Part shown: positions 5,226 to 10,438 of the stretch, one piece after another
Layout: each line of letters starts with the position of its first letter
Numbering within the stretch: position 1 is the stretch's first letter
Assembly: GCA_035491955.1 (NCBI GenBank)
Contig: DATJJU010000001.1
Span: 393 to 64,392 of the forward strand
DNA: 64,000 nucleotides
DNA from: Minisyncoccota bacterium
Lineage (GTDB): Bacteria > Patescibacteriota > Minisyncoccia > Phycocordibacterales > UBA9973
Direction of reading: 5' to 3'
Translations under genes and position numbers: made by a program
The notes under the pieces: generated by a model
What the model was told of the DNA's origin: nothing
Seen by the model: only the letters and a program-made list of their open reading frames with translations
The model's database searches: none

Positions 5226-5834
5226 ATGAATAATGACTCTGTTGATCGGCTCGCGAAGCTATTTCTAAAATTCCCCGGCATTGGCGAGCGTCAAGCTCGT
5301 CGTTTTGCATACTTTATTCTTACGCAGCAAGAAGGCTACGTTGATTCTCTTTCTCGCGCACTGGTATCGGCCCGCAAAAATGCCAACCACTGCAGCAAGT
5401 GTTTGCGTATCTTCGAAGGCAATCCGGGGCTCTGCCAAATATGCAGCGACGAGAGCCGTGATCAAAGCAGTATTATCGTTGTAGAAAAAAGCCAAGATAT
5501 TGAGAGCTTTGCTCGCACTGACTATCACGGACTTTTCTTCGTTCTTGGCGGACTTATTCCTATTGTACAAAAAGATATTATCCAAGGTACTAATGCACAG
5601 AAACTTATTGATCGCATCCAACACGACAGTGCCCAAGGCATATTAAAAGAAACCATCTTGGCATTTCCTATTACACCAAATGGTGAGCATACCGACGGTG
5701 CAGTTCGCGAACTACTCTCTCCTATTGCTGTAAATTTAAAAATCACCTCTCTTGGCCGCGGACTTTCTACCGGCGCAGAGCTGGAGTATGCAGACCCTGC
5801 TTCTTTGGAAGCCTCCCTTAAGAAGCGTGAATAG
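5226..5834 (+). CDS. recR: recombination protein RecR
   Basis: HhH motif (LPGIGERQARR), a C4 zinc finger (CSKC...CQIC) and a Toprim domain. 202 aa. Confidence 0.9.
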   Translation: MNNDSVDRLAKLFLKFPGIGERQARRFAYFILTQQEGYVDSLSRALVSARKNANHCSKCLRIFEGNPGLCQICSDESRDQSSIIVVEKSQDIESFARTDYHGLFFVLGGLIPIVQKDIIQGTNAQKLIDRIQHDSAQGILKETILAFPITPNGEHTDGAVRELLSPIAVNLKITSLGRGLSTGAELEYADPASLEASLKKRE

Positions 5835-6438
5835 TACGGTAATGCGTATCAAGAGCACGATAGAGCCGCGCGAAGAGCATCATTACTAATGGGTATGCGA
5901 CGAGCAAGCCGACAAAGAGTGCGATAAGGCCAGCAATGAGAAGCACTACTGCCATAAGCAGAGTAAGCACAACCACCCAGAAGATATTTCCTTTTACCAT
6001 GTGCCAAGAATCCTCCAATGATTTTTTTACACTTCCCTGATGATCGAGATAGCTGAAACGAGCAAGGCTGAGGCGCACTGCAAAGTACAGCCCCGGAATA
6101 ATAAGCAACACTAAACCGACAATGATGATAAGCATTGAAATAATACTAATCGCAATGATCATGAGGAATTGTCGGAAATTCGGCATGTGTATAGAAAGAG
6201 ATTTGAAGGTAAGCAGGTCTTCTTTGCCATCCGCGCTTGCTAATGCCACGCTCATCCAAACATATCCCCAGATTACTTGAGCAATGATGACAATGATAGA
6301 AAGCCAGGCACGATGATGACTATTGAAAGATCCGAGAATCATCACAACGAGTGCCATAATAGCGAAAAACCATGGGTGTTGCCAAAAATCGTGCCATGAT
6401 TCGCGCACTGCGTTCTTGATAGAAAAATGAAATTTCAT
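5818..6438 (-). CDS. hypothetical polytopic membrane protein
   Basis: 206 aa with 5-6 predicted transmembrane helices. Overlaps the recR 3' end convergently. Confidence 0.5.
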   Translation of the reverse strand: MKFHFSIKNAVRESWHDFWQHPWFFAIMALVVMILGSFNSHHRAWLSIIVIIAQVIWGYVWMSVALASADGKEDLLTFKSLSIHMPNFRQFLMIIAISIISMLIIIVGLVLLIIPGLYFAVRLSLARFSYLDHQGSVKKSLEDSWHMVKGNIFWVVVLTLLMAVVLLIAGLIALFVGLLVAYPLVMMLFARLYRALDTHYRTIHAS

Positions 6439-6448
6439 AAATAGATGA

Positions 6449-8191
6449 TTAGCGATCCGGTGGGATACTGTAATAATTCTCTAGGAATTGTATCATATTG
6501 AAGAATGGATCACCCAATGTCTGGATGGAGTAGAGGATATTTTTTGGGTAATAGTTATAGAAATAGAGCATGAAGCGCGGATTGGTTGCTGGGAAAAAGC
6601 CAATCATGGAGTGCAGATTTCGATCGTTGTAGTAGCCCGCGCCGCCCGGCATAGCAATCTGGGCAGTACCAGTCTTGGCTGCTACCGTATAGTGCGCCTG
6701 ACCTCGATGATAGCCATCGTCCACTACGTGTGTAAGCATGGTAGTCATAGTCGCAAGCGTTTGCGGGCTTAGCAGCGGCTCAGGAGATTTTGGATAGGTC
6801 AACGTCTTCACTGTACCGTCTTCCTGATCAATGGCCGTAGCAAGATGCGGCGTGACAAGATAGCCTCCGTTAGCAAGCAGTGACCAGCTGCGCACAATAC
6901 TGATCGGCGTGGTGGCAATGCCTTGACCAAAGGCAGCGGTAGCGAAGTTTACATTATTGTTCCCTTTCAAGCTGCTCATCAAGCCGCTGACTTCGCCTGG
7001 CAAATCAATACCGGTCTTTTGTCCCAATTCATATTTATCTATGTACTGTTTGAACAATGCATTGCCCATATGTTGCTCAACGTAGATCATACCCGTATTC
7101 AATGAGTCATTGAGCACTGTTTGCATCGTAGTACCAGGACCTCGTCCTACTTTATCGAAGTTTGAAATCTTAGCATTGTTCACCACTACAAACCCTTGGT
7201 CATTATATGTTGTTTGCGGAGTAACGACATGGTTTTCAATAGCTGCTCCCATGATAAGCGGCTTGATGATTGATCCCATCTCGAAATCGCTTTGAACAAG
7301 AGGGTTGGAATAAATGCCGACATCACTCTGTCCAGAGTAATTATTGAGATCGAATGACGGTACTTGCGCCATAGCAATGATCTCACCGGTATACGGATCC
7401 ATAACGATAGCTCCCACAGACTGACTGGACCATTTTTGCTGAATGCCCGCCACTGTCTGCTCCAGCTGAGCCTGGACCGTTGGCTCAATCGATGTCACGA
7501 CATCACCAGTCGACGTATTGTTTTTGAAAATTGATGATTGGATATTGGCAAAAATCTCTGCAAAGAAGTTTACATAGAACTGACTGTTGCTTCGGGACAA
7601 CACATCGTTGTAGTACTGCTCAAGGCCGTAATTGCCCACAAGATTGTTTCCTTTGAACGATACGAAGCCGATGGCTTTGGCAGCAAGCGAGCCGCCCGGA
7701 TAGTAGCGCCACTTATCGGCATAGAGTGTTAGCCCAGGAATTTTATCAGCAGACAGTGCTGCTCCTTGATCAGGGCTGAGGTGTTGTGCCACTTCTTCGT
7801 AGGGATCTTGTTTTTTAGCGACACTGGCAAGAAATGAAGCCTGGTCGACGGGAATTATTGCATTGATTTCATCAAAGGCTTTTTGAGGATCCACTACTTC
7901 GCTTGGACGGACAGCAGCCTTGAAGCCGTCCTGAACAGTAGCAGCCGCAACAGTAGTACCATCTTTGCTGGTGAAATAAATAGTGCCTCTATCAAAAATA
8001 TTAGTAGAAGGCGTAACGTATTGACGTTCTGCACGCTGACGATAGTCACCGACATGAATGATCTGTAAATAAAAAAGTCGAACAACAATCAAAGCGCCGA
8101 GAAAAGTCACGGCGGCCATGATGATCCGTATTCTCTGACGATGGATGTTACTGTCCGACATTCCAGGCAAGAGCAGGCTTTGCAGTAGCAA
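6449..8191 (-). CDS. ftsI: class B penicillin-binding protein, peptidoglycan D,D-transpeptidase (FtsI-like, dcw-cluster copy)
   Basis: N-terminal transmembrane helix and the transpeptidase motifs SIIK (SxxK), SLN (SxN) and KTGT. It sits downstream of mraZ-rsmH-ftsL. Confidence 0.85.
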   Translation of the reverse strand: MLLQSLLLPGMSDSNIHRQRIRIIMAAVTFLGALIVVRLFYLQIIHVGDYRQRAERQYVTPSTNIFDRGTIYFTSKDGTTVAAATVQDGFKAAVRPSEVVDPQKAFDEINAIIPVDQASFLASVAKKQDPYEEVAQHLSPDQGAALSADKIPGLTLYADKWRYYPGGSLAAKAIGFVSFKGNNLVGNYGLEQYYNDVLSRSNSQFYVNFFAEIFANIQSSIFKNNTSTGDVVTSIEPTVQAQLEQTVAGIQQKWSSQSVGAIVMDPYTGEIIAMAQVPSFDLNNYSGQSDVGIYSNPLVQSDFEMGSIIKPLIMGAAIENHVVTPQTTYNDQGFVVVNNAKISNFDKVGRGPGTTMQTVLNDSLNTGMIYVEQHMGNALFKQYIDKYELGQKTGIDLPGEVSGLMSSLKGNNNVNFATAAFGQGIATTPISIVRSWSLLANGGYLVTPHLATAIDQEDGTVKTLTYPKSPEPLLSPQTLATMTTMLTHVVDDGYHRGQAHYTVAAKTGTAQIAMPGGAGYYNDRNLHSMIGFFPATNPRFMLYFYNYYPKNILYSIQTLGDPFFNMIQFLENYYSIPPDR

Positions 8192-8494: not shown

Positions 8495-9376
8495 TTATAG
8501 TTTTTCGATGGTACGGAGCTTGGCGCTTCTTGATCGAGGGTTAGTTGATAATTCTTCTTGCGATGGAGGAGTTGGTTTTTTAGTGATAACGCGTCCTTGG
8601 GATTGGTTTTTCATCCATTGTTTAACGATTCTGTCTTCGAGGCTGTGAAAAGTAATGATGCTGATGCGGCCATGCGTGTTGAGAACATTCCACCAGGCGT
8701 TCAGAGATTCTTCCAAAGTACCGAGCTCATCATTGACCGCAATGCGCAAGGCTTGGAAAGTCTTCGTGGCAGGGTGAATGCGGCCTCGGCGCGGTATAGC
8801 AGTACTAATAATGTCTGCAAGCTGCGCTGAGGTAGCGATGGGACCATGTGCCCGAGCTTCGATAATAGCCTTGGCGATTTTGCGAGACTTCGGCTCTTCG
8901 CCGTATCCGTAAATAACATTGGCGATGGATTCTTCTTGCCAGCTATTGACGATGTCATAGGCATTGAAGCCAGTGTGCGAACCTTGCTCAGAGAATGTCA
9001 TTGCCAAAGGAGTATCGCTTTGGAATGAGAAGCCTCGAGTATCGTCTAAGAGTTGGAAAGTGCTCGTGCCAAGATCAAGCAATACTTTGTCTACACCGTT
9101 CACATTGGCTGCACTGATGATGGTAGTAGCGTCTTTGAAGTTGGAATGGACAAAGATTGCATGGTTCTTGCCTTTGAAGAGGTCCGCGAAGCGCTGTTGT
9201 GCTCCTTCATCCAAATCAACGCAGATAAGCGTGCCTTTTGGAATGAGATCGTACAGCACCGTGCTATGCCCTCCTCCTCCGAACGTACCGTCAACGATAA
9301 TATCGTTGGGTTGTACGGACAGAGAGTCGACAGATTCGTGTAAAAGAACGGAAATATGGCTGACTGCTGATTTCAT
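8495..9376 (-). CDS. rsmH: 16S rRNA (cytosine1402-N4)-methyltransferase RsmH/MraW
   Basis: SAM-binding motif GTFGGGGHS and the conserved C-terminal region. Second gene of the dcw cluster. Confidence 0.92.
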   Translation of the reverse strand: MKSAVSHISVLLHESVDSLSVQPNDIIVDGTFGGGGHSTVLYDLIPKGTLICVDLDEGAQQRFADLFKGKNHAIFVHSNFKDATTIISAANVNGVDKVLLDLGTSTFQLLDDTRGFSFQSDTPLAMTFSEQGSHTGFNAYDIVNSWQEESIANVIYGYGEEPKSRKIAKAIIEARAHGPIATSAQLADIISTAIPRRGRIHPATKTFQALRIAVNDELGTLEESLNAWWNVLNTHGRISIITFHSLEDRIVKQWMKNQSQGRVITKKPTPPSQEELSTNPRSRSAKLRTIEKL

Positions 9377-9377
9377 A

Positions 9378-9812
9378 TTAGAGTACGCCGATTGATCCCA
9401 AGCGTTCTGCTAATGTGTCAGCATTTGCCTCTACTTGGCGTTTGTATTTCTGCCAAGTAGGCTCGTCCCAAAGTTCAAGACGACTATACACGCCGATGAC
9501 TGCGACTTTCTCTTTAATACCTGCACGTTCCTTGAGGAAGTCAGGCAACAAGATGCGGCCATTGGCATCAACTGAGACTTCCGTTGCGCCACCCAAGAAG
9601 TATCGGCTGAAACTTCTGGTATCAGATTGAAGCATTGAACCTTCTGCAAGCTGCTCGGCTTTCTTTTTCCATTCAGCTGCAGTGAAGACAAACAATGACT
9701 TCTCTAATCCTGGCGCCACAACTACCGTCTTTCCCATTTCCTTGCGAAATTTGACTGGCAATGACAGTCGGTTTTTTTCATCTATATTGTGTGTATATTC
9801 GCCGATTAACAT
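9378..9812 (-). CDS. mraZ: transcriptional regulator MraZ
   Basis: Two MraZ repeats, each with DxxxR (DEKNRLSLP...; DANGRILLP). Start placed at the ATG whose reverse-complement sits at 9810-9812, because the track ORF uses an upstream GTG. Confidence 0.9.
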   Translation of the reverse strand: MLIGEYTHNIDEKNRLSLPVKFRKEMGKTVVVAPGLEKSLFVFTAAEWKKKAEQLAEGSMLQSDTRSFSRYFLGGATEVSVDANGRILLPDFLKERAGIKEKVAVIGVYSRLELWDEPTWQKYKRQVEANADTLAERLGSIGVL

Positions 9813-9821
9813 GTTTCTTAC

Positions 9822-9861
9822 ATTTACCACTTTCTCCCACTTAGTACCATTTTACCCCACT
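9822..9861 (-). promoter_or_regulatory. putative MraZ operator: four tandem 10-bp direct repeats (AGTGGGgtaa / AATGGTacta / AGTGGGagaa / AGTGGtaaat) overlapping the candidate -10 box and the 5'UTR of mraZ
   Basis: Seen directly in the reverse-complement of 9821-9870. The 10-bp periodicity of GTGG-type repeats matches known MraZ-box architecture. Confidence 0.6.
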
Positions 9862-9940
9862 TCATTCCCCTCCCGCAAACAAGTTGGTGTGGATAAACCG
9901 AAAAAACAGCAGTTGGAAACACTACTGAGAAAAGTCAAAA

Positions 9941-9969
9941 GGGCGCGCCACTACGTGGCGCGCCCTTTT
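9941..9969. terminator. bidirectional rho-independent terminator (GGGCGCGCCAC-tac-GTGGCGCGCCC) flanked by A and T runs, downstream of greA
   Basis: Perfect 11-bp GC-rich stem with a TTTTG tract on the plus strand and an AAAAGTCAAAA tract on the other side. Confidence 0.8.
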
Positions 9970-9979
9970 GTTATTGTTT

Positions 9980-10438
9980 TTACGAAACACTAATGACTTC
10001 GTATTCCATATCTCCCTTCGGAGTGCTGACAGTGATACTGTCCCCTTTCTTTTTACCATTAAGGGCTGCACCGATCGGCGACTTGTAAGAAATCTTGCCA
10101 GAGAGCATATCAGTTTCTTCGCTGCCGACAATAGTAAATGTGCGAGTGTTTGATTCGCCCTGCTTTTGAATCACCACAGTAGCGCCAACGCCGACAATAC
10201 CGTCAGACGATCGGTCAACAACTTCTGCATGCTTCAAAATATTTTCGATCACGGCAATGCGCTCTTCAAGCTTACCTTGTTCTTCACGAGCGATATGGTA
10301 TTCAGCGTTTTCAGAAAGATCGCCAAGTGACTTGGCATATTCGATAGCTGAAATAATTTCCTTGCGCTTCACAGTTGTTAGTTGCTTGTGCTCTGCTTCA
10401 AGTGCTTCTTTATTTTCTTTGGTCAGATATTCCTTCAT
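9980..10438 (-). CDS. greA: transcription elongation factor GreA
   Basis: GreA coiled-coil N-terminal domain and FKBP-like C-terminal domain; 152 aa. Confidence 0.92.
   Translation of the reverse strand: MKEYLTKENKEALEAEHKQLTTVKRKEIISAIEYAKSLGDLSENAEYHIAREEQGKLEERIAVIENILKHAEVVDRSSDGIVGVGATVVIQKQGESNTRTFTIVGSEETDMLSGKISYKSPIGAALNGKKKGDSITVSTPKGDMEYEVISVS

Follow-up and report, generated by a model that had tools for sequence, protein, structure and literature searches.

Cryo-EM of M. genitalium MraZ bound to its operator (AAAGTGT-N3-AAAGTGT-N3-AAAGTGT-N3-AAAGTGG; 9qlr, 9qlg and others) revealed that an opened octamer uses four of its subunits to engage four boxes, and that the residues K13, R15 and R86, positioned by D11 and D82, contact TG(T/G); the transcription start is located within a box (PMC12957436). 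The MraZ-box consensus has accordingly been given as GTG(G/T) boxes with a 6-nt separation (PMC12957436), and that of the Mollicutes as (AAAGTGK-N3)n, with the specific form (AAAGTGK-N3)3 (PMC5282649). Repression in B. subtilis needs three GTGG[A/T]G repeats as well as R15 and R86 of the protein (bioRxiv 2022.02.09.479790), and in B. cenocepacia four repeats of 7 nt, spaced by 3 nt, overlap the transcription start (PMC7761207). MraZ is reported to repress its own operon in E. coli and B. cenocepacia (Eraso et al. 2014, cited in PMC7761207 and PMC8475190). We describe here an array of the same kind at the head of the dcw operon in a 64-kb window (the whole stretch of DNA that was analysed) from a Candidatus Nomurabacteria-type patescibacterium, a lineage for which no description of a MraZ operator was found in the literature searched.

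The mraZ gene of the window is followed by rsmH, a small FtsL-like ORF, a 580-aa ORF and a gene for a membrane protein, after which convergent genes begin (Table 1). The FtsL-like ORF had no match in Pfam, and the reading of the 580-aa ORF as an FtsI/PBP-type transpeptidase, made by eye, finds support in synteny, given that in three relatives (L041-L043) rsmH is likewise followed by a small ORF and then by a gene with precomputed PBP_dimer/Transpeptidase hits. Both ORFs are presumably transcribed from the mraZ promoter. The 580-aa ORF, with its listed TTG start at 8191, overlaps the end of the FtsL-like ORF (8148) by 44 nt; this may reflect an over-called start or translational coupling of the two genes. 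On its upstream side, mraZ is separated from greA by a perfect, GC-rich palindromic hairpin with T-runs on both strands, which ends greA and insulates the mraZ promoter; in relatives, hairpins of unrelated sequence occupy the same place. Bounded by this terminator, the mraZ regulatory region extends from about 9935 to 9813.

Table 1. Positions of the promoter elements, MraZ boxes, genes and neighbouring features in the window, ordered along the mraZ strand
Feature	Position	Strand	Remarks
greA	9980..10438	-	Pfam match; upstream neighbour of mraZ
Terminator hairpin, palindromic	9936..9970	.	16-bp stem; ends greA
DnaA-box sequence TTATCCACA	9888..9896	-	9/9 match to the consensus TTATNCACA; 9 nt upstream of the -35
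Predicted -35 hexamer TTGCGG	9873..9878	-	18 nt 5' of the -10; TTG in 17-18 of 18 genomes
Possible fifth unit, degenerate (unit 0), GGGG	9867..9870	-	exactly 10 bp 5' of box 1, in the -35/-10 spacer
MraZ-box array, four units, 10-bp phased	9822..9861	-	reads AGTGGGGTAA AATGGTACTA AGTGGGAGAA AGTGGTAAAT
Box 1, GTGG	9857..9860	-	context GAAGTGGGG; within the -35/-10 spacer; invariant in 18/18 genomes
Predicted -10 hexamer TAAAAT	9849..9854	-	TAWAAT in relatives; hexamer positions 1, 2, 4, 5, 6 (T, A, A, A, T) invariant in 18/18
Box 2, ATGG	9847..9850	-	context AAAATGGT; AT is the end of the -10; invariant in 18/18 genomes
Box 3, GTGG	9837..9840	-	context TAAGTGGGA; directly 3' of the predicted transcription start; invariant in 18/18
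Box 4, GTGG	9827..9830	-	context AAAGTGGTA; exact Mollicutes unit AAAGTGK (PMC5282649); invariant in 18/18
mraZ, 144 aa	9378..9812	-	opens MLIGEYTHNIDEKNR... / MLIGEYTHNIDEKNRLSLP...; Pfam PF02381, E = 2.8e-33
rsmH (mraW)	8495..9376	-	second operon gene; Pfam PF01795, E = 2.1e-91
Small FtsL-like ORF, 113 aa	8148..8489	-	from the ORF list
580-aa ORF, FtsI/PBP-type transpeptidase by eye	6449..8191	-	own sequence and synteny
206-aa membrane protein	5818..6438	-	last in the operon

Examination of the array showed that its four boxes start at 9860, 9850, 9840 and 9830 and are separated by spacers of 6 nt, giving an exact 10-bp period. Thus, the original prediction of four 10-bp repeats upstream of mraZ is confirmed, both in the sequence that it gave and in the succession GTGG, ATGG, GTGG, GTGG at exact phasing, as is the placement of the array 9 nt before the start codon (ATG at 9812). 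A correction is needed for unit 2, which reads ATGG rather than GTGG in the window and in all relatives. The array is also singular in its surroundings: the pattern GTGG-N6-RTGG-N6-GTGG-N6-GTGG (allowing at most 1 mismatch) has a single match in the 64-kb window and none in 100 dinucleotide-preserving shuffles, and even the simpler two-box pattern GTGG-N6-GTGG occurs in the window only within the array. Tandem Repeats Finder reports it as 1.9 copies of a period of 20 with 83% matches. The GGGG lying one period further upstream may be a degenerate fifth MraZ unit: the majority base at each of its positions is G (in 14, 14, 17 and 15 of the 18 genomes compared, respectively), and GTGG stands there in L038 and L040, which is why it might be counted as a box; however, the T that MraZ contacts is absent from GGGG, and its status is accordingly uncertain.

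The boxes are interlocked with a predicted promoter. TTGCGG and TAAAAT, with their 18-nt spacer GAGGGGAATGAAGTGGGG, form the only conserved -35/-10 pair, and transcription is predicted to start near 9842, about 7 nt after the -10. The overlap of the array with a candidate TAAAAT that had been pointed out earlier is borne out, the hexamer at 9854-9849 sharing bases with unit 2. A generic sigma-70 scan made no call of the mraZ promoter, since TTGCGG scores only 3/6 against TTGACA. Relative to the predicted start, boxes 3 and 4 lie at approximately +3 and +13, and boxes 1-4 together span roughly -19 to +16, with the GG of box 2 occupying the discriminator position next to the -10. Given that the first two bases of unit 2 are also the last two of the -10 hexamer, this unit reads ATGG in every relative. 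A second promoter, TGGTAAAT at box 4, which would yield a leaderless mRNA, was judged by eye and set aside: its hexamer TAAATG has no final T, and L039, L041 and L043 do not retain the sequence.

Comparison of these units with the published MraZ-box consensus sequences, one of the checks proposed with the original prediction, shows that they match GTG(G/T) with 6-nt spacers (PMC12957436, PMC5282649); measured against the Mollicutes unit AAAGTGK, box 4 is exact (AAAGTGG) and each of the other three units agrees at 6/7 positions. The ATGG of box 2 retains the contacts, given that the specific contacts are to TG(T/G), and this supports counting four functional units. The encoded protein is equally well matched: the window MraZ aligns without gaps to M. 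genitalium MraZ (9qlr) over residues 1-102 and possesses D11, K13, R15, D82 and R86, with both DXXXR motifs. Hence the two systems share identical contact residues (K13, R15 and R86, held by D11 and D82), four direct boxes with a 10-bp period and an A-rich 5' flank, and an array positioned directly upstream of mraZ and overlapping the transcription start region, which in the window is a predicted one (PMC12957436). They differ in that the window boxes are GTGG rather than GTGT, with box 2 being an ATGG fused to the -10; in that the -10 of the window lies inside the array, whereas that of M. genitalium lies beside it; and in the possible fifth GGGG unit and the DnaA-box-like 9-mer further upstream in the window. 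The host is also different, being a patescibacterium with a cell-wall dcw operon that includes the FtsL-like ORF and the gene read as ftsI.

Likenesses extend to further dcw promoters. Those of E. coli (Pmra) and B. cenocepacia (PmraBc) are described as carrying phased repeats built on a GTG/TGG core, as in the window (PMC7761207, PMC8475190), with the difference that in proteobacteria the whole array lies 3' of the -10, while in the Nomurabacteria type the -10 has one box on its 5' side, a second fused to it and two on its 3' side. B. subtilis shares the GTGG core and the 10-bp period, and its array is the only one near Pmra, but it is composed of three units with 4-nt spacers as against four, possibly five, in the window (bioRxiv 10.1101/2022.02.09.479790). 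The original prediction regarded four contiguous units as unusually regular; this was an overstatement, in that strict 10-bp phasing is the norm of the family and earlier work on both M. genitalium (PMC12957436) and B. cenocepacia (PMC7761207) has described four-box arrays. A four-box array is also seen at a Chloroflexota locus (L022).

Relatives of the mraZ gene were gathered by a scan with one genome per species, a metagenome scan and a protein search, and ten homologue contigs were fetched. The closest mraZ genes from the one-genome-per-species scan (88-96% protein identity) come from Candidatus Nomurabacteria/Paceibacterota MAGs, with more distant ones in other Patescibacteria; the metagenome scan added two useful relatives, including L023 at 99%, and the protein search returned many MraZ homologues at 65-76% identity. 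From the -35 to box 4, 19 sequences could be aligned with zero gaps, and the conservation counts refer to the 18 of these that have a full-length mraZ. Across these 18 genomes, whose MraZ proteins are 66-99% identical, all 16 of the 16 box bases are invariant and their spacing is constant, the consensus unit being (A)AGTGG(G/T)A. By contrast, identity to the window is only 35-62% at the third codon positions of mraZ, and at silent positions of conserved four-fold-type codons only 21-58%, indicating that neutral sites are close to saturated while the boxes are unchanged. The alignment of upstream regions from related genomes, likewise proposed at the outset as a check, thus comes out in favour of the operator. 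The bases between the boxes vary; at one spacer position, for instance, 9 genomes have A, 4 have G, 3 have C and 2 have T. Furthermore, boxes 3 and 4 are conserved although they lie 3' of the -10, where promoter function alone demands no sequence conservation.

Gene neighborhoods of the relatives further indicate to which gene the element belongs. L035-L040 keep the order PBP2-greA-mraZ-rsmH, but the same promoter architecture recurs behind other upstream neighbors, namely a divergent VTT-domain gene in L041 and L043 and an unannotated 179-aa ORF in L042; in L044, where mraZ lies behind an aminoacyl-tRNA synthetase, the upstream 9-mer is kept together with a box array that is related but rearranged. 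It is therefore mraZ, not greA, that the element accompanies. Among more distant loci (L013, L009, L010, L044, L016-L021 and L022) the same logic is seen in rearranged form. Zambryskibacteria L013 has two boxes, a TAGAAT -10 and two further boxes (about 2440-2490); in L009 all boxes are 3' of a TATAAT; in Taylorbacteria L044 a TACAAT is surrounded by boxes at 0, 10, 31 and 41; gammaproteobacteria (L016-L021) show TATAGTGT-N6-GTGG-N6-GTGG, sometimes continued by N6-ATGG; and in Chloroflexota L022 a TATACT is followed by four perfect GTGG boxes, spaced by N6 (about 2345-2385). Four- or five-unit arrays are thus widespread, and where the -10 falls among the boxes depends on the lineage.

These patterns also bear on whether a repeat-binding protein is needed to explain the conservation at all. 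It could in principle reflect nothing but promoter and 5'-UTR function, that is, the -10, the discriminator, the initially transcribed sequence and a translation-initiation or standby region rich in purines. Box 2 does overlap the -10, and its two invariant G's could be accounted for by a GGGA-type discriminator; moreover, no Shine-Dalgarno-like sequence is present within 15 nt 5' of the mraZ ATG (TAAATGTAAGAAACATG; 9813-9826), such that other leader features could matter for translation. Nevertheless, such an account leaves unexplained the exact 10-bp recurrence of four bases amid variable spacers, as well as the GTGG periodicity that recurs upstream of mraZ in phyla that are unrelated and position their promoters differently. 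The GGAG of box 3 is not conserved, relatives having GTGGGAC or GTGGTAA, and the leader shows no significant RNA structure, folding no better than shuffled sequences (z = -1.1), nor does any Rfam family cover it, the sub-threshold hits falling exclusively on the greA terminator hairpin. On the last two grounds an RNA element in the mraZ leader was rejected, and conservation through promoter and leader function alone appears improbable to us. Close relatives conserve the A-rich leader GTGGTAAATGTAA well, and translation initiation of mraZ may be independent of a Shine-Dalgarno sequence.

A different question is whether part of the array is coding. The ORF finder places the mraZ start at the GTG of 9830, within box 4, and several database gene calls of 150-160 aa imply the same; this GTG is in frame with the ATG at 9812 in the window, and database homologues have been called at 150-177 aa (P0001-P0005). 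However, the same GTG lies 17 and 20 nt from the ATG in L004 and L005, which puts it out of frame, and in L004 the reading runs into a stop; the distance from box 1 to the ATG varies from 46 to 92 nt among relatives; and all PDB MraZ entries align from residue 1, the M of MLIG. The window MraZ itself aligns from residue 1 with the PDB entries 1n0e and 9qlr. A coding role for box 4 is thus hardly credible, and comparison of the reading frame among relatives shows that the true mraZ start is the ATG at 9812, giving a protein of 144 aa. Both the mechanical ORF call and the database calls of 150-177 aa (P0001-P0005, P0008 and others) begin in box 4 or further upstream, which looks like a systematic over-extension of annotated mraZ starts.

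Taken together, the locus presents four direct repeats with a 10-bp period, where at least three bearing GTG(G/T), or at the minimum TG(G/T), define a MraZ operator (PMC12957436); an array directly 5' of mraZ at the dcw head and interlocked with the predicted promoter; a cognate MraZ with both DXXXR motifs as well as K13, R15 and R86; and boxes that are conserved while their spacers drift. In light of this, we consider it highly probable, with binding and repression both taken over by homology from the described systems, that the array is an autorepressing MraZ operator within the dcw operon promoter. The original prediction of a likely autoregulatory MraZ operator is in this way supported by the consensus match, the conservation, the promoter overlap and the DNA-contact residues of the encoded MraZ. 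Under the proposed mechanism, a MraZ oligomer would place one subunit on each TGG-containing box, the boxes lying on successive helical turns and on the same face of the DNA, and would bind cooperatively. With box 1 in the spacer, box 2 on the -10 and boxes 3-4 in the initially transcribed region, occupancy of the spacer, the -10 and the start region would either exclude RNA polymerase or block formation of the open complex, and the resulting negative autoregulation would set the levels of mraZ, rsmH, the FtsL-like ORF and the ftsI-type gene.

MraZ overexpression in M. gallisepticum raised FtsZ levels (PMC8475190), and in some mycoplasmas MraZ is reported to increase dcw expression, so that the sign of its effect is not guaranteed; the weak -35 TTGCGG and the long 18-nt spacer are, moreover, of the sort found in promoters that can need help. 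MraZ could hence act at the same operator as an activator of the dcw promoter, or fine-tune it both ways. Set against this is the arrangement of the boxes over the spacer, the -10 and the start region, a classic occlusion geometry, and the fact that arrays overlapping the promoter or start are repressive in B. subtilis, in M. genitalium reporter assays and, as reported, in E. coli. We regard activation or two-way tuning as unlikely, and autorepression as the reading that best accords with the geometry.

Further upstream, the promoter is flanked by a 9-mer that is identical to the DnaA-box consensus TTWTNCACA (as used in PMC7561715). The exact sequence TTATCCACA occurs once in the 64-kb window. 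On the mraZ strand the 9-mer is found in all 23 patescibacterial loci (L001-L010, L013, L023, L035-L044 and the window), being exact in 18 and TTATCCCCA in the other 5. Box 1 could be located in 21 of these 23 sequences (the window and 22 fetched loci), and 19 of the 21 have a 9-mer that ends 25-28 nt before it and lies 7-10 nt upstream of the -35; among all 23, three or four have it farther away. Only three other copies were seen in roughly 100 kb of fetched DNA, the flanks of the 9-mer are not conserved, and it is absent from the fetched non-patescibacterial loci (proteobacterial, Bacteroidota and Chloroflexota). An interpretation of TTATCCACA as an inverted, phased MraZ box is unlikely, as its distance to box 1 varies (25-28, 36 and 47 nt), which inter-box distances never do, and the TTATCCCCA variants destroy its GTGG.

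The proximity of this 9-mer leads one to ask if the repeats themselves might be bound by another protein, either DnaA, in that GTGG forms the core of the DnaA-box complement TGTGGATAA, or a different AbrB-type regulator. A perfect DnaA-box sequence is indeed conserved 27 nt upstream of box 1 of the window, and in one relative, L010, two downstream GTGG boxes are extended to the full TGTGGATAA. However, the four units have only (A)AGTGG in common and not the 9-mer, 10-bp-phased direct repeats beside mraZ are the published signature of MraZ, and a cognate MraZ with intact contact residues is encoded directly 3' of the array; we accordingly deem recognition of the array by a protein other than MraZ very improbable.

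With MraZ retained as the probable ligand of the array, TTATCCACA may be considered on its own, and we put forward the hypothesis that it might serve as a single DnaA site near -50. It matches the DnaA box of DnaA-regulated promoters (TTATNCACA), but as a single box with no cluster, and the TTATCCCCA of five relatives breaks a position of the DnaA-box consensus. No DnaA-box cluster, the sign of an origin, was found in the 64-kb window; a 395-aa ORF contains the two nearby hits with one mismatch at 51.3-51.5 kb. The literature searched yielded no published link of DnaA to mraZ. We thus regard as possible, though on balance doubtful, a dcw promoter with two inputs, in which MraZ autorepression would be combined with DnaA acting at the single TTATCCACA box, whose centre is near -50. 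Since GTGG is part of the DnaA-box complement TGTGGATAA, competition between MraZ and DnaA at hybrid boxes is possible, and the layout of L010 suggests that it might occur. In that genome the two downstream GTGG boxes (2457-2477) are copies of TGTGGATAA placed 12 bp apart and accompanied by an upstream TTATCCACA, so that three DnaA-box-like 9-mers surround one mraZ promoter.

The array is thus in all probability a clean but ordinary case of a known switch, and the understanding of MraZ regulation is unchanged by it. Its implications are instead for the lineage. The conservation provides a well-defined promoter model, namely TTGCNN, an 18-nt spacer and TAWAAT. In practical terms, the operator footprint fixes the mraZ start codon, where several automated calls extend into the operator. 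The 9-mer beside the -35 offers a lead as to how division might be linked to replication in these bacteria; if the two-input promoter were real, the state of replication initiation would be coupled to division-gene transcription in Nomurabacteria-type Patescibacteria. The members of the Candidate Phyla Radiation are uncultured and have reduced genomes, and to our knowledge almost nothing is experimentally known of their transcriptional control; it is to this group that the present locus extends the MraZ-box paradigm.
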